Sequence record: MK524178.1
Source of the DNA: Escherichia phage PHB12
DNA: 64,000 bases
Strand: one strand, 5' to 3'
Part shown: piece by piece, positions 19,894 through 25,977 of the stretch
Numbering within the stretch: position 1 is the first letter of the stretch
Layout: every line of letters starts with the position of its first letter
Notes under the pieces: model-generated
Seen by the model: the letters and a program-made list of their open reading frames with translations, nothing else
What the model was told of the DNA's origin: nothing
Databases searched by the model: none
Program-made: the position numbers and the translations under genes

Positions 19894-20673
19894 ATGGCAG
19901 TAGTAGGAATCCCTGGTTGGATTGGGACCTCAGCCGTTGCTGAAACGGGTCAAAGATGGATGACGGCTGCTTCAAGGGAACTTCGTTTAGGAAACCCTTC
20001 ATGGATGTCCCAATTCGCGGGCCGTTCAAGAGAAATAATTCATACACTTGGTGCAGACCATAACTTTAACGGACAATGGTTCCGTGACCGTTGCTTTGAA
20101 GCTGGCGGCGCTCCTATAGTGTTTAATATCACCGGAAATTTGGTATCATATAGTAAAGATGTTCCATTATTCTTTATGTATGGCGATACACCAAATGAAT
20201 ATGTTACTTTGAATATTCATGGTGGAGTTCATATGTGGGGACGAGGTGGTAACGGTACTGTAAACGGAAACCCAGGCACAAATGGCGGCGATGTAATCCA
20301 AAATGATATCGGCGGAAGACTTCGTATTTGGAACTATGGCGTTATTGCATCAGGCGGTGGCGGTGGTGGTGCAGTGTCATTACAGAATAGCTGGGCGCCA
20401 AATGCTACAGCAGGTGGCGGTGGTGGTAGACCATTTGGCATCGGCGGAGGTGGCGTTAATTGGCCAGGTGGTAATGCTAGTTATGACGCCCCGGGCGGTG
20501 CCGGTTACACTTCCCAATTCGGCGGAGGCAATGGCGGTGATGCTGGCGCTTGGGGCGGAGATGGATGGGGTAATCACTTATCTAGATCTGGCGGTGGTGC
20601 TCCTGGCAGAGCAGTATTCGGAAGTTCACCGTCATGGGGTGCTACAGGCACAATCTACGGCTCCTGGATTTAA
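19894..20673 (+). CDS. 38: Receptor-recognising tail fibre adhesin gp38 (T2-type, Gly-rich loops)
   Basis: 259 aa; multiple poly-Gly segments ([31 protein letters not shown]) encoded by GGN repeats; position after gene 37. Confidence 0.9.
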
Positions 20674-20718: not shown

Positions 20719-21378
20719 ATGGCAGCACCAAAAGTATCATTTTCGCCTAGTGATATTTTATTTGGGTTGCTAGACCGCATTTTCAAAGATAACGCCTCTG
20801 GAAATATTCTTATTTCAAGAGTTGCTGTTGTAGTTCTTTTGTTCCTAATGGCACTAATATGGTACAAAGGGAATATTTTTATGGATTATTACGTGAGGTC
20901 GAAATATGATACTTACACAGAAGTAATTCAAAAAGAAAGAAATACACGATTTGAATCTGCGGCTTTAGAACAACTACAAATAGTCCACGTCACATCAAGG
21001 GCGGATTTTAGTTCGGTGTATTCTTTCAGACCTAAAAATCTAAATTATTTCGTCGACCTTATTGCGTATGAAGGTAAGTTACCTAGCACAGTAACTGAAA
21101 AATCTATGGGAGGATTTCCTGTTGATAAAACGACAGCAGAATATTCGGTCCATTTAAGTGGACTTCACTTTACTTCTAAAACAGATTTTGCTTTCTTACC
21201 TACCAAATCAAAAACTCCGGAACTGGCGTATATGTATAGTTGTCCTTACTTCAATTTGGATAACATATATGCTGGAACTGTTTCTATGTATTGGTATAAG
21301 GGGTCGGATGTGTTAAATGAAGAACGCTTGGCTGCAATATGCAACCAAGCAGCAAGGATATTAGGGCGGGCTAAATAA
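20719..21378 (+). CDS. t: Holin
   Basis: Start at ATG 20719 (MAAPKVSFSPSDILFGLLDRIFKDNASG...) matches T4 holin T; single N-terminal TM segment; about 219 aa. Confidence 0.9.
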   Translation: MAAPKVSFSPSDILFGLLDRIFKDNASGNILISRVAVVVLLFLMALIWYKGNIFMDYYVRSKYDTYTEVIQKERNTRFESAALEQLQIVHVTSRADFSSVYSFRPKNLNYFVDLIAYEGKLPSTVTEKSMGGFPVDKTTAEYSVHLSGLHFTSKTDFAFLPTKSKTPELAYMYSCPYFNLDNIYAGTVSMYWYKGSDVLNEERLAAICNQAARILGRAK

Positions 21379-21651
21379 TTAGTTGTTAGAATACATCGTC
21401 AAATGGCGATAAATATTTTCAAAACCTTCATTGAATTCACTAATCAGTGTTTTCTTTTCTTCGGCAGTTAAATTTGTAATTAGTTTTCTGAACGAATTCT
21501 GATTTAGCTGCCGACCATCTTTTTTAATTCCAATCTCATTCAAGAATCCGATGAAATTTGCTCGGTCTTCAACAATATCTTCCCTCGAGAATTTAATCAA
21601 AATAGAAGCAACAGTAATAATTTCACGTACAATTTCAATATCTTTATTCAT
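21379..21651 (-). CDS. asiA: Anti-sigma70 factor AsiA
   Basis: 90 aa; MNKDIEIVREIITVASILIKFSREDIVEDRANFIGFLNEIG is near-identical to T4 AsiA. Confidence 0.95.
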   Translation of the reverse strand: MNKDIEIVREIITVASILIKFSREDIVEDRANFIGFLNEIGIKKDGRQLNQNSFRKLITNLTAEEKKTLISEFNEGFENIYRHLTMYSNN

Positions 21652-21685
21652 ACCGTTTTATTCATTCCATTTGGTTGATACGAGT

Positions 21686-21715
21686 ATAGTACCATTAACA
21701 ATGTTGATTGTAAAC
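21686..21715 (-). promoter_or_regulatory. Early (sigma70-type) promoter upstream of asiA
   Basis: Minus-strand GTTTAC (-35), 18-bp spacer, TACTAT (-10); T4 early promoter architecture. Confidence 0.6.
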
Positions 21716-21859
21716 AGCTTTTTCTACACTTTTAACGTAATCAGTGTAGTCTTCCTGTTCATACGAGTGTAAGGCTAAGAACGTGGCTAATAGTTCATTA
21801 TAGACTAAAGCCTCACGCTCACGTTCGGCCTCTACTACGTTCTGAAGATTATGACTCAT
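21695..21859 (-). CDS. Hypothetical small protein
   Basis: Internal-start version of table ORF 21695..21913; overlaps the asiA promoter region; weak. Confidence 0.3.
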   Translation of the reverse strand: MSHNLQNVVEAEREREALVYNELLATFLALHSYEQEDYTDYVKSVEKAVYNQHC

Positions 21860-22148
21860 ATTGTTCCTTATAACTATCAATGTAGTCCTGTATGTCAAAG
21901 AACGACATTTCATATTCTAGGACATTAAGAGCCCGTTCTTCAGTATAGTCAGAACCAAAGACGATAGTGATTTCACCAGGCTTCATATGATTGAAATCGA
22001 CACTAAAAGGAATACGAGAACATACTTCGTCTGCCATATCTACGATAACACTACGACACACTTCTCGGTTAACCTGATAAAGCTCTGCAAGTTCTTCGCA
22101 ACGAATAACAAGTTCAGTGGCAGGATTTTCTTTGATTTTAGTAAACAT
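21849..22148 (-). CDS. Hypothetical acidic protein (possibly Arn-like, by position only)
   Basis: 99 aa, strongly acidic; sits in the asiA-motA interval where T4 encodes arn. Confidence 0.4.
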   Translation of the reverse strand: MFTKIKENPATELVIRCEELAELYQVNREVCRSVIVDMADEVCSRIPFSVDFNHMKPGEITIVFGSDYTEERALNVLEYEMSFFDIQDYIDSYKEQYES

Positions 22149-22222
22149 AGTCTTTACCCTTATGTTTTTGTTTGCGTTTAGATTGAAGTTCTGATTTCTT
22201 CTTGTCCTTATGAACAGAAGCC

Positions 22223-22450
22223 TTATTGAAATCGTGTTTTGCTACAAGATTGTTCATAATGATTTATAACCTCACTTAAACATTTATCGGTAAAAGAAAA
22301 CTTTTTAGCCACAGAACATTCGATAATGTGTTCTTTCAAATCTTTAGAGTCAGTATAACCCATCTCAGTAATAAAGTGGCGAATTAAAGCTTTATTCTTA
22401 TCATTAACAGAATTAAAATAATCTGCTTTAGAATCAATTATTCTCATCAT
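22223..22450 (-). CDS. Hypothetical protein
   Basis: 75 aa ORF in asiA-motA accessory interval. Confidence 0.4.
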   Translation of the reverse strand: MMRIIDSKADYFNSVNDKNKALIRHFITEMGYTDSKDLKEHIIECSVAKKFSFTDKCLSEVINHYEQSCSKTRFQ

Positions 22451-22715
22451 CTAATTTCCTTAATTGATATTGCAACGAGCTAATAATTTCTTCGTTCATT
22501 TTAATATACATGTCACGCAAGAAAGGTTTTAACCCATCACGAATAATTGCTAACGTATCACCTTTACATAAATTAACCAAATAAGGATGGTCTAAAGCAT
22601 CCCAACCAGGCTGATTAGCATACATACCATAGTTTTCTTCCATCATATGATTAAGGCGTTTGATATCTTGGATACGTGATTCAATAGCATCTTTCTGGAG
22701 TTGTTTAATATTCAT
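22434..22715 (-). CDS. Hypothetical protein
   Basis: 93 aa ORF, overlap coupling with neighbours. Confidence 0.45.
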   Translation of the reverse strand: MNIKQLQKDAIESRIQDIKRLNHMMEENYGMYANQPGWDALDHPYLVNLCKGDTLAIIRDGLKPFLRDMYIKMNEEIISSLQYQLRKLDDENN

Positions 22716-23176
22716 TAATAAAGGTCCTCTGAATAAAGTTCTTTCTCACTTCCGCCACGTTCAATACGTACCTGACCAGCATACGTTGCAATAACCATTG
22801 CTTCTTCACGTGTCCAGTAATTAGAGTATTGGTCAATAAAGCCTTGGTCGTCGCCACAAACTTGTTGCGAGACTAATTGAGGACCAACTATGTCAAGTAC
22901 TTCAGCCATATCTTTAGAGTAATGACGAACTCCAGGAATAACCAGAGTTCCACCACTCTTCAATTTAAACCTATTAGCTGCACATACTATAACACGTTGA
23001 ACTTTTTGGTCATTATTCCAATAGCACGTTTGCCAACAGATTTCAGGAACTTCATTCATTATATCATCAGCAGAATAATTATAACCGTAGGACTGGAATT
23101 TTTCTGCTAGACTTTCAGGAGTCTCACGAGACAAGGCCAAATCTAATAGCTCTAAACGTTCTTTAAATGATTTCAT
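22715..23176 (-). CDS. Hypothetical protein
   Basis: 153 aa; no motif I can assign with confidence. Confidence 0.5.
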
Positions 23177-23502
23177 TTAAACCATTCCTTAATACGTTGC
23201 CAAATAGATTTTTGTGCTTGTTTATTTACACCAATCGAACGAATAACCGGTTGTGACTGCTGATATTCTTTATAATCTTCTTTATAGATTTCGTAAGCTG
23301 CATCAACAAATGAACTGATCGCTGCCATGTAGTTTTTACGAAGGCCGAATGGTGCGTCATTATTTTCACGAATAATCATATATTGGCCTGCTTTAATCTT
23401 TACAATTGTCCCTAAATAAGCCCCGTGGTACCAAATATCCCATCCTTCCTGAGTAGGTTCTGCACATTTACGAAGTTCGTTAATAACATTCAGCTTATTC
23501 AT
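23173..23502 (-). CDS. Hypothetical protein
   Basis: 109 aa ORF directly downstream of motA. Confidence 0.45.
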
Positions 23503-23512
23503 TATGTATTCC

Positions 23513-24145
23513 TCACAGTACGTTAGTTACAAGGGTAATGATTTCTTTGGACACATTAGGGAAGTCAATGTAAGTATATTTACCACCGATCTTAATCTTA
23601 ACATCATTTTCAAGAGAAGTAAACAGCTTTGATTCAGTTTCTGACATGTTGTATGCAAAGATTCTAAGAGAACCATTTCGACGAATTTCGATCTGACGAA
23701 TACCTAGAACTCGTTTTGCAAATCGAACTTCCAAGTTACTACGGTTTTCACCAATTTCTTTAACTTCAACTTTATCTTTAATATTTTCAAAAACAAAGTT
23801 TGCTAGTTCATGCATTTCAGGAGTAACTCCACGTGCTTTTCTGGTGTTACGTTTCTGAAGAAGTTCTGGAGCATTTTCTTGGGCAAAGAGGTCTGCAGCT
23901 TTTTGGATAATATCCATTGCTTCGCCTGTTGCTATAAGTCCATCACCAGATTTTTCGACTAAACCTTTCTTAATCAATACACCAATGTTAGAGTTAACAA
24001 CCGATGCATTGTATTCCGCTTCCAGAGCTTCCCGGACATTGGCAGCAGTGGTGAAGTTGTTCTTAATGATATAAACCATTATTGCAGCAGTTTTTTCATT
24101 CAGAGCGTTTTCGGAAGCTTTGATGATGTAAGTAACTTTAGACAT
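23513..24145 (-). CDS. motA: Middle-transcription activator MotA
   Basis: 210 aa; size and position as T4 MotA; N-terminal MSKVTYIIKASENALNEKTAAIMVYII. Confidence 0.9.
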   Translation of the reverse strand: MSKVTYIIKASENALNEKTAAIMVYIIKNNFTTAANVREALEAEYNASVVNSNIGVLIKKGLVEKSGDGLIATGEAMDIIQKAADLFAQENAPELLQKRNTRKARGVTPEMHELANFVFENIKDKVEVKEIGENRSNLEVRFAKRVLGIRQIEIRRNGSLRIFAYNMSETESKLFTSLENDVKIKIGGKYTYIDFPNVSKEIITLVTNVL

Positions 24146-24220
24146 TTTATTTCTCCAATTTGGTTGTTTTGTTTTGATAGGTCTATAATATCATGTTTGA
24201 AGCAAAAGTAAACTTTATTT
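24137..24220 (-). repeat. Direct repeat copy A (early promoter plus 5' leader plus first codons) upstream of motA
   Basis: About 84 bp nearly identical to 24458-24540, including a 64-bp perfect core. Confidence 0.85.
24185..24213 (-). promoter_or_regulatory. Early promoter for motA
   Basis: Minus-strand GTTTAC, 17-bp spacer, TATTAT; inside repeat copy A. Confidence 0.65.
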
Positions 24221-24250
24221 TGGGCTCTTTTTCAAAAGCCCTGGTAAAAT

Positions 24251-24466
24251 TTACAAACTCATTTCTTTAATAAGGCTAATAAGTTTTGCCTTTTTAGAAC
24301 GAAGCTTTTCTAAATGATGTCCATTTGAACCGCGAACCACTAAAGAATTGATTTCAACTTCTAAGAAATTTAATTCTTCAACAAGTGCTTTACGTGGAGC
24401 ATTCATACCAGGTTTAACTTTACCGAAACGAGTAGTTGTGTTTTGGGTTAATTTCATTTTAGACAT
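24251..24466 (-). CDS. Hypothetical basic protein
   Basis: 71 aa; its own copy of the motA promoter/leader repeat upstream; starts MSK like motA. Confidence 0.5.
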   Translation of the reverse strand: MSKMKLTQNTTTRFGKVKPGMNAPRKALVEELNFLEVEINSLVVRGSNGHHLEKLRSKKAKLISLIKEMSL

Positions 24467-24540
24467 TTTATTTCTCCAATTTGGTTGTTTTGTTTTGATA
24501 GGTCTATAATATCATGTTTGAAGCACATGTAAACTGTTTT
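24458..24540 (-). repeat. Direct repeat copy B (early promoter plus 5' leader)
   Basis: Near-identical to 24137-24220. Confidence 0.85.
24506..24534 (-). promoter_or_regulatory. Early promoter for ORF 24251-24466
   Basis: GTTTAC, 17 bp, TATTAT on minus strand inside repeat copy B. Confidence 0.6.
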
Positions 24541-24559
24541 GTGAGAAAAATGCACAAAA

Positions 24560-24575
24560 GGGAGCCGAAGCTCCC
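24560..24575 (-). terminator. UUCG-tetraloop hairpin terminator after gene 52 (GGGAGC-UUCG-GCUCCC then UUUUG)
   Basis: Perfect 6-bp stem, UUCG loop, U-run on minus strand, about 77 nt after gene 52 stop. Confidence 0.6.
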
Positions 24576-24651
24576 TAATCATGTTTGTCCAACCAATACA
24601 GCCAAATCACTAGTGCAGCTATTGCACCGAGAAATCCTAAGGCTAGGGCAC

Positions 24652-25977
24652 TCAAAGTGCCTCCAAGTCTTTAGTGTACTCTGTCACAACATCAGTAGAC
24701 TTCCAATACTCATTTTCTTCTTTCTTAGCTTTAGCTTCTTCTGCTAGTTTACGTGCTTCGTCGGAAGTGATATGGAAGATGTTAAGGCCTACCAGTTTAT
24801 CGACATGTTCTTTATACATTTCGATTTGTGCTAGCTCTTCAGTCAAAGCTTTACGAGTCTTGCCCTGAATCACAATTTCACCTGTAATAACTTTTTTGAT
24901 GAAGTGTGCCTTAGCAAAAGCCAGTTTAAATGCTTTTTCAGATTCAAGGATTTTGTTGTCAATACGTTTCTGAACGTAAGTCTTACGGACTTCAACAAAA
25001 TCTTTGATTAAGTCCACTACGTTATCGTAGACAGCTAATTTACCCTTTTCATTAATCACTGTGATGTTTTGTGAACGACGTTCGATGAGACTAAAATCTT
25101 TCATGATTTTTTCATGACGTAGCTCTTCATCATCAGGAAGCGAGTACTCTTTACGGAACTTCACCTTAAACCCAAAGCCGTGTTCACCACAATCATCTTC
25201 CCATGAGATTAGACCTTTGTCTTCCAGCGGGTCAAGAACCTTACTCACATACGTTTCACGGTCAAATTTATATGGGATTTCAGTTATCTGCATTTGAGTG
25301 CGAGATGTGAACTTATATGTTCCGTGAATCTCATAACGCCCATCAACTTCATGTACTTCACCACGGAATTCCGGGAATTCAACTTTTGGCTTAGTGACAT
25401 TTTTACCTTGAAGAGCTTGTAATACAGCCTTTTTGACTGATTTAAAACTATGAGGCAGAATATTTGTTGCGTAACCGGTTGCAATACCGGAGACACCATT
25501 CAAAAGAACTGTTGGAATAATAGGAAGATAGAATTTTGGTGGAATGTGTTCTTTATCTTCATGAGCTGGAGCATATTCAGTATCTTTATATACGTTATAG
25601 AAATTTTTACTTACACGAGCAAAAATATAACGAGACGCTGCAGCTTTTTGGACTGTTCGAGAACCAAAGTTGCCTTGGCCATCTAACAGTGGATAGTTGT
25701 TGTTCCATGTGTTAGCCATCAATGCACCTGCATCTTGTGCAGAAGATTCGCCATGGTGATAACCTAAATCTGCAACACCACCTGCAATTGACGCAAGTTT
25801 ATGAAATTTTTCTTTATTACCACGAGCCAAATCTAACGCACGATGAACCACAAAACGTTGAACCGGCTTAAATCCATCAATCATGTTTGGGATTGCACGG
25901 TTTTCAACGGTGTACATCGCATATGCTAAGGCTTCGTTATCAATAATACTTTTTAGATTACGAGAATTCAATTGCAT
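24652..25977 (-). CDS. 52: DNA topoisomerase II medium subunit gp52
   Basis: 441 aa; MQLNSRNLKSIIDNEALAYAMYTVENRAIPNMIDGFKPVQRFV matches T4 gp52 (GyrA-like). Confidence 0.95.
   Translation of the reverse strand: MQLNSRNLKSIIDNEALAYAMYTVENRAIPNMIDGFKPVQRFVVHRALDLARGNKEKFHKLASIAGGVADLGYHHGESSAQDAGALMANTWNNNYPLLDGQGNFGSRTVQKAAASRYIFARVSKNFYNVYKDTEYAPAHEDKEHIPPKFYLPIIPTVLLNGVSGIATGYATNILPHSFKSVKKAVLQALQGKNVTKPKVEFPEFRGEVHEVDGRYEIHGTYKFTSRTQMQITEIPYKFDRETYVSKVLDPLEDKGLISWEDDCGEHGFGFKVKFRKEYSLPDDEELRHEKIMKDFSLIERRSQNITVINEKGKLAVYDNVVDLIKDFVEVRKTYVQKRIDNKILESEKAFKLAFAKAHFIKKVITGEIVIQGKTRKALTEELAQIEMYKEHVDKLVGLNIFHITSDEARKLAEEAKAKKEENEYWKSTDVVTEYTKDLEAL

Follow-up and report, generated by a model that had tools for sequence, protein, structure and literature searches.

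The motA-asiA interval of Escherichia phage PHB12 is a Mosigvirus version of the T-even arn operon and very likely encodes a highly diverged Arn homolog

The motA-asiA interval of PHB12 corresponds to the T-even arn operon

We analyzed a stretch of 64,000 nucleotides of Escherichia phage PHB12 (MK524178.1), here called the window, to whose positions all coordinates refer unless another locus is named, and focused on the small genes between motA and asiA. On the minus strand this interval holds seven tightly packed small open reading frames (ORFs) that all run in one direction. Read from motA to asiA, these are arn.4, arn.3, arn.2, arn.1, a DUF7230 ORF, an ORF for an acidic 99-residue protein in the position of arn (the Arn slot) and an AsiA.1-like ORF (Table 1). 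RB69-like phages (genus Mosigvirus) match positions 21300-24200 at 97-98% nucleotide identity. Judged by its sequence, the interval represents the T-even arn operon in its Mosigvirus (RB69-type) form, with every gene collinear with its counterpart in T4 and T2. The RB69 annotation lists the same ORFs as RB69ORF258c, ORF259c, arn.1, arn.2, arn.3 and arn.4, and the T4 annotation of this interval reads asiA.1, arn, arn.1, arn.2, arn.3 and arn.4.

The original prediction, made from the letters of the sequence, had described six small ORFs of 54-153 residues between asiA and motA. All six are present with the same limits, and a seventh, the 39-residue DUF7230 ORF, had been overlooked. The prediction had also likened the region to the Arn/arn.x interval of T4, and this is right: for four of the ORFs the orthology to T4 Arn.1-Arn.4 is clear, with 41-79% identity in BLASTP and in the same order. 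Arn.1 is 79% identical over the annotated T4 part, Arn.2 shows 41% identity to T4 Arn.2 and 62% to the VR25 protein, and Arn.3 is 76% identical to T4 Arn.3. The C-terminal 68 residues of Arn.4 are 76% identical to the annotated T4 Arn.4, and the full-length protein shares 74% identity with VR25 Arn.4, at a ratio of nonsynonymous to synonymous substitution rates (dN/dS) of 0.09. The 54-residue ORF is weakly similar to T4 AsiA.1 and VR25 gp175, with which it has the N-terminus MSHNL in common.

The ORFs are more than chance open frames. A Shine-Dalgarno-like sequence precedes each of the seven, adjacent ORFs overlap by 1-35 nucleotides in the style of translational coupling in T4, and their orthologs are syntenic across genera. 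Between motA and arn.4 lie 10 nucleotides, between the 54-residue ORF and asiA 43, and motA probably opens the transcription unit to which the ORFs belong. The leftmost ORF extends mechanically to 72 residues; phrog_5245, which covers residues 19-71 of this longer frame (E 5e-31), and the annotations of RB69 and phage SF favor an internal ATG and a protein of 54 residues.

Comparison over 14 IMG/VR loci anchored on arn.3, plus the VR25 genome, revealed a plan shared by several T-even lineages: arn.4-arn.3-arn.2-arn.1-DUF7230-acidic ORF of 86-99 residues-MSHNL-type ORF-asiA. The acidic ORF is absent from some of the compared loci. In one T4-like lineage (IMG/VR contigs L011 and L015, around 1131-2636) the cluster is rearranged, with arn.1 upstream of arn.3, no arn.2 and a 101-residue ORF in place of the MSHNL-type ORF; L015 carries an 86-residue Arn of intermediate sequence, and L011 has no Arn.

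Table 1. Features of the motA-asiA region of PHB12, in the direction of transcription
Feature	Position	Strand	Product or sequence	Support and remarks
Promoter match, sigma-70/T4-early-like	24185-24212	minus	TTTACT-16-TATTAT with TG	upstream of motA; consensus scan
motA (flank)	23513-24145	minus		Pfam MotA_activ E 1e-39 and MotCF
arn.4 ortholog	23173-23502	minus	109 residues, basic, isoelectric point (pI) 9.2	first gene after motA; phrog_1594 E 2e-52
arn.3 ortholog	22715-23176	minus	153 residues	Pfam PF26092 T4_Y16D
arn.2 ortholog	22434-22715	minus	93 residues	phrog_1844
arn.1 ortholog, long form	22223-22450	minus	75 residues	phrog_4452
DUF7230 ORF	22138-22257	minus	39 residues, lysine-rich, pI 10.1	Pfam PF23876 E 5e-13; phrog_1359
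Arn-slot protein, RB69ORF259c type	21849-22148	minus	99 residues	phrog_8202
AsiA.1-like ORF	21695-21859	minus	54 residues, acidic, pI 4.7	RB69ORF258c; phrog_5245
Promoter-like site	21686-21714	minus	TTTACA-17-TACTAT with TG	in 3' end of the 54-residue ORF, upstream of asiA; consensus scan
asiA (flank), last gene	21379-21651	minus		Pfam AsiA E 3e-33; 75% identity to T4 AsiA
Terminator-like hairpin	21325-21351	minus	12-base-pair stem, 6 GC pairs, T-rich tail	downstream of asiA

The acidic protein of the Arn slot is very likely a diverged Arn

The strongly acidic character that had been noticed for the 99-residue protein was borne out by its composition: 21 aspartate and glutamate residues against 9 lysine and arginine residues, a pI of 4.29 and a net charge of -12. 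Its gene lies between arn.1 and asiA.1/asiA, as in T4, RB69, VR25 and the IMG/VR loci. Four sequence types were found for this ORF, namely T4 Arn, the window type, a Gaprivervirus type (VR25 gp174) and the protein of contig L015 (L015_86). All four are 86-99 residues long, carry a net charge of -9 to -15 (T4 Arn -9) and share the C-terminus (D/E)(L/I)(E/Q)DY(F/I). VR25 gp174 is 32% and L015_86 23% identical to the window protein.

Profile searches connect these types. A profile of the window and VR25 types, without any T4-type sequence, gave the T4 Arn structure 3WX4 as the top match among 177,635 PDB sequences (E 0.0061). The alignment is collinear (13-92 against 11-93), and the next-best match has E 0.21. 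When L015_86 was added, the match to 3WX4 improved to E 3.6e-5. VR25 gp174, like the window protein a member of phrog_8202, matches the Arn PHROG (phrog_3151) at E 2.2e-4, and T4 Arn in turn matches phrog_8202 at E 5.4e-3. L015_86 bridges the two, being a member of the Arn PHROG (E 4.5e-32) that matches phrog_8202 at E 0.023. Alignment of two pairs of Arn-slot types with hhalign gave 75% probability and E 2.6e-5. The structure of the 99-residue protein predicted by AlphaFold2 (AF2) matches the fold of 3WX4, and the sequence evidence stands independently of this model. Taken together, these comparisons make it very likely that the 99-residue protein and T4 Arn are homologs that have diverged strongly. 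A weak resemblance of residues 22-76 of the 99-residue protein to the coat protein of the single-stranded RNA phage PP7 reached E 5e-4 for a tandem-dimer PDB entry and only E 0.8 for the single chain; we judge it a chance match because the duplicated chain doubles the score.

T4-type Arn occurs in 485 phage records, every one with at least 88% identity. The window type is found in 178 phage records, mostly Mosigvirus, and in 13 more at about 31% identity; in a collection of 5.8 billion proteins it forms only six clusters at 90%. For VR25, RB69 and further Mosigviruses, the Arn column is blank in a published survey of modification-related genes in Tevenvirinae (PMC8056088, Supplementary Table 3), and the homology is therefore not generally recognized. 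The cryptic Arn family in Mosigvirus and Gaprivervirus is one new point of this analysis, next to the annotation corrections and to the tentative link of Arn.3, with its apparently new fold, to the antitoxin CmdA.

The accessory genes are conserved and partly misannotated

The DUF7230 ORF occupies the same place, upstream of the Arn slot, in four T-even genera, including Tequatro-, Mosig- and Gaprivervirus-type loci and other IMG/VR loci. Its sequence follows the pattern MNNLVAKH(D/N)FNK...KQKHKGK. The ORF is annotated in phage SF and unannotated in the RefSeq entries of T4 and RB69; in T4 it is present at 2081-2200 on the minus strand of the extracted locus (L003, from NC_000866). Its first 22 residues also match phrog_5724, 4586, 15229 and 31895, whose C-termini differ. 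A resemblance by eye to the ribosome-rescue factor ArfA was discarded: a profile of seven DUF7230 sequences had no PDB hit at E<=10, and Pfam returned only DUF7230. Membership in PF23876, and likewise in PF26092 for Arn.3, adds no mechanism, since both families are without known function.

For Arn.1, Arn.2 and Arn.4 there was no significant match in profile searches of Pfam, NCBIfam, PADLOC or PDB; the PADLOC hits "Hp1" and "REase_II" (E 0.002 each) were short and weak and were disregarded. Preprints from 2026 still give the functions of arn.1-4 as unknown, and the searched literature holds nothing else on them. The original prediction had regarded all the small ORFs as anti-restriction or anti-defence candidates. 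This is supported for one of them, the 99-residue Arn homolog, and for the other ORFs neither our searches nor the searched literature gave evidence of anti-defence activity.

The names in the databases convey a different picture. Homologs of arn.1 (phrog_4452, RefSeq) and many Arn.3 homologs (RefSeq and UniRef names) are labeled "anti-restriction nuclease", a label that appears to derive from the gene name and not from evidence, while the true Arn homolog of RB69-type phages is called "hypothetical protein". The T4 arn.1 gene is a further case. Window Arn.1 aligns over its full length with a TTG-started T4 ORF of 72 residues (51/72 identical; L003 2175-2393, minus strand). The 70-nucleotide "intergenic region" between arn.2 and arn.1 of T4 is in frame with arn.1 from this TTG, which is preceded by the Shine-Dalgarno sequence GAAGGTG, and it encodes the same residues as the N-terminus of window Arn.1 (dN/dS 0.13 over 29 codons). 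Because the stretch is in frame, has a start with a Shine-Dalgarno sequence and conserves the residues, T4 Arn.1 is probably a protein of 72 and not of the annotated 43 residues. The arn.1/arn.3 label, the missing 39-residue gene and the truncated T4 arn.1 are annotation errors that can mislead the mining of anti-defence genes.

Substitution rates divide the cluster. The genes arn.1-4 and the DUF7230 ORF are under strong purifying selection, with dN/dS of 0.09-0.22 (arn.2 0.19, full-length arn.1 0.10, DUF7230 0.11-0.14). Arn and AsiA.1 show dN values of 0.7-0.9, close to saturation (0.7-0.8 for AsiA.1). This fits a view of Arn as a fast-evolving arms-race effector that is embedded in a conserved cluster.

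ArcZ-dependent control is probably absent from the PHB12 operon

A single transcript covers the arn genes in T2, and the arn operon of T2/T4 is a middle transcript that is stabilized by the host small RNA ArcZ (bioRxiv 10.64898/2026.06.19.733364). The scan of the PHB12 locus found no Rfam RNA family. For a duplex search we used an ArcZ sequence that occurs, under or next to arcB, in 5,417 of 5,426 E. coli genomes; identity is 95-100% and reaches at least 99% in 5,396 of them. In the T4 operon the best duplex falls on the 3' end of arn.2 (-25.6 kcal/mol), and the pairing site CCAGGGAAAU overlies the TTG start of the 72-residue Arn.1. This suggests that ArcZ pairs over the start codon of T4 Arn.1.

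The corresponding junction of PHB12 is built differently. In place of the 70-nucleotide region of T2/T4, arn.2 and arn.1 overlap by 17 nucleotides. The ArcZ-complementary CCAGGGAAAU has shrunk to UUAAGGAAAU, which is the ribosome-binding site of arn.1, and the RNase E motif GCAUU before arn.1 reads CCACU through synonymous codon changes. No ArcZ site matching the T2/T4 position was found at the arn.2/arn.1 junction of the window. Because of the overlap, the reduced complementarity and the altered motif, we consider control by ArcZ and RNase E to be probably absent from this operon. The best duplexes in the window (-22 kcal/mol), which fall within arn.3 and within the Arn-like gene, contain interruptions and lie away from the T2/T4 position, and they were left uninterpreted.

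Two neighboring genes may be mentioned here. A basic 71-residue ORF (24251-24466, minus strand) separates motA from gene 52, where T4 has motA.1; phage SF annotates it as hypothetical, and the region's best promoter-like match (24533-24506, 10/12, with TG) lies ahead of it. On the plus strand (19894-20673) lies a glycine-rich protein of 259 residues, a gp38-type adhesin named "tail fiber protein; host specificity" in RB69; its ORF forms a local GC spike of 0.59 in surroundings of 0.31-0.42.

The Arn homolog would act as a DNA mimic

T4 Arn inhibits McrBC restriction of DNA with non-glucosylated hydroxymethylcytosine (hmC); in a published model it binds McrB as a DNA mimic, and it also binds H-NS (PMC12707154). 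Work from 2026 describes inhibition of PUA-Cal-HAD by T4 Arn and its loss through the single change N70S, so that one residue change alters which host system is blocked. By analogy, the 99-residue protein would be a small, negatively charged DNA mimic that occupies the DNA-binding surface of host DNA sensors or binders. From homology, position and charge, it would most likely compete with DNA for the binding surface of a defence or nucleoid protein, the candidate targets from T4 Arn being McrBC type IV restriction, H-NS and PUA-Cal-HAD. Like T4 Arn it would form a dimer, and it may protect phage DNA whose hmC still lacks glycosylation. The five upstream genes would be conserved accessory genes that are co-expressed with it, presumably from one transcript. 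As a whole, we regard it as reasonably probable that the locus is a Mosigvirus arn operon in which a diverged, DNA-mimicking Arn homolog is expressed together with conserved accessory genes.

Several observations weigh against this account. The 99-residue protein is only 14-16% identical to T4 Arn, and a search with this sequence alone does not reach the Arn PHROG at E<=1. AF2 worked from a shallow alignment of 7 sequences, and the predicted local distance difference test score (pLDDT) of the five models ranged from 68 to 85.5. Thr69 occupies the aligned position of N70, the specificity residue of T4 Arn, and the target spectrum may therefore differ from that of T4 Arn. RB69-type DNA contains arabinosyl-hmC instead of glucosyl-hmC (PMC6024577), so that a host nuclease other than McrBC may be the relevant one. 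At the level of transcription, promoter-like matches are no commoner in the region than in shuffled sequences, and a search of 21300-24700 gave no canonical MotA-box promoter.

Alternatively, the cluster could mainly be a module for host takeover and transcription, in which the products encoded between the middle-transcription factors MotA and AsiA remodel the host nucleoid and gene expression, with the Arn-like protein acting via H-NS. In every genus examined the cluster lies between these two genes, which is consistent with this, as is the binding of T4 Arn to H-NS, by which it may affect transcription. Furthermore, the purifying selection on Arn.1-4 and DUF7230 is unlike that of typical fast-evolving anti-defence genes, and Arn.1 appears, from an alignment judged by eye, to be a small helical domain. 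However, T4 Arn has genetically demonstrated activity against McrBC and PUA-Cal-HAD, and the replication defect that T2 suffers from poor expression of the arn operon is suppressed by deletion of mcrC. Moreover, the N-terminal module of Arn.3 resembles the antitoxin of an anti-T4 defence system (see below), and searches of Pfam, NCBIfam and PDB profiles found no DNA-binding or RNA polymerase-binding family for any of the ORFs. We consider a takeover module unlikely.

The reading as an arn operon with a DNA-mimicking Arn has consequences beyond PHB12. T4 Arn is one of few characterized DNA-mimic anti-defence proteins. Its occurrence at such low identity in the RB69-like phages and some Gaprivervirus phages widens the family and provides natural variants for mapping target specificity, and the presence/absence table that scored RB69-like phages as lacking Arn is thereby corrected. 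Because their hmC carries arabinose and not glucose, RB69-type Arn may be tuned to other type IV or DNA-sensing defences.

Arn.3 and a possible link to the antitoxin CmdA

The 153-residue protein had been described as lacking any assignable motif. This did not hold, since it is the ortholog of T4 Arn.3 and belongs to PF26092. Within the set of Arn.1-4 families Arn.3 is the most conserved (126 clusters). Its invariant polar residues are R84, H85, Q111, D115, R123 and Q135, and the C-terminus LxSExLY is conserved. The protein consists of a two-helix N-terminal module (residues 1-30) and a conserved core (about 45-153). In the AF2 model the helices lie at 4-16 and 20-29, and residues 45-153 have a pLDDT above 90. 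This confident model found no fold match in the PDB, and the core apparently represents a new fold.

Residues 1-30 match positions 1-30 of the 77 positions of the PADLOC profile PD-T4-9_B (E 1.9e-7, by profile score). The profile is matched by 13 of 71 Arn.3 homologs, at best with E 2.5e-10 and always in register from Met1. The module is missing in many homologs, and all variants that carry it match the profile. PD-T4-9 is the anti-T-even system CmdTAC, whose middle gene encodes the antitoxin CmdA, described as a pair of helices at the N-terminus with a disordered degron tail behind them. T4, which is restricted by CmdTAC, has the weakest match (16 bits, compared to 28-36 bits in other lineages). 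Searches for the CmdA sequence itself by word index, by exhaustive phmmer in 1.8 billion proteins, by tblastn in phages and plasmids, by blastn in E. coli genomes and by scans of IMG/VR and GTDB returned only T4-like Arn.3 or nothing, apart from one spurious repeat protein (P0130) in the protein collection. We treat the link between Arn.3 and CmdA as a lead and not as a finding.

The two proteins agree in the predicted N-terminal helix pair and diverge beyond it. Arn.3 runs on into a globular core of 110 residues that ends in SEDLY, and both the disordered chaperone-addiction tail and the LAA degron for ClpXP are missing from it. CmdA is encoded between an ADP-ribosyltransferase toxin and a SecB-like chaperone, whereas the neighbors of arn.3 are arn.4 and arn.2.

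If the lead is followed to its end, Arn.3 would be the functional center of the cluster: it would keep the degron-free, toxin-binding part of CmdA and neutralize CmdT-like mRNA ADP-ribosyltransferase toxins, with the core providing a second activity or a scaffold. The match in register from Met1, the agreement of the modelled helices with the description of CmdA and the weakest match in the CmdTAC-sensitive T4 would fit such a role. Yet the match, judged by its profile score, spans only 30 residues, T4 possesses Arn.3 and is restricted nevertheless, many homologs lack the module, and no CmdT or SecB-like partner is encoded nearby. We hold this role of Arn.3 to be improbable. Its detailed form, for which our expectation is equally low, is that of a two-part counter-defence protein, in which a degron-free CmdA hairpin would capture CmdT-like mRNA ADP-ribosyltransferase toxins released by abortive-infection systems of the toxin-antitoxin-chaperone (TAC) type and would be joined to a phage-specific domain of new fold that also occurs inside large polyvalent proteins. 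If true, sequence differences in the hairpin would account for which of the T-even phages CmdTAC restricts.

Comparison with known systems

The T7 protein Ocr (gp0.3) and ArdA resemble Arn in being small and very acidic proteins of phages or plasmids that are expressed early and block defence enzymes which bind DNA. The folds are unrelated and the families are not homologous, and neither Ocr nor ArdA was among the structural matches of the 99-residue protein. Compared to T4 Arn (PDB 3WX4, phrog_3151), this protein belongs to a different PHROG that carries no function label (8202) and has eight more C-terminal residues. BLASTP detects no similarity between the two. In a rival reading the protein would be unrelated to Arn and would have replaced it when gene cassettes were exchanged in a hypervariable slot; the likeness would reflect a generic two-layer alpha/beta fold and acidic composition, and the protein could have any function. 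We think this quite improbable.

The PHB12 locus is an already known kind of system. Between motA and asiA it has the same gene order and orientation as the arn operon of T2/T4, arn.4-arn.3-arn.2-arn.1-arn.

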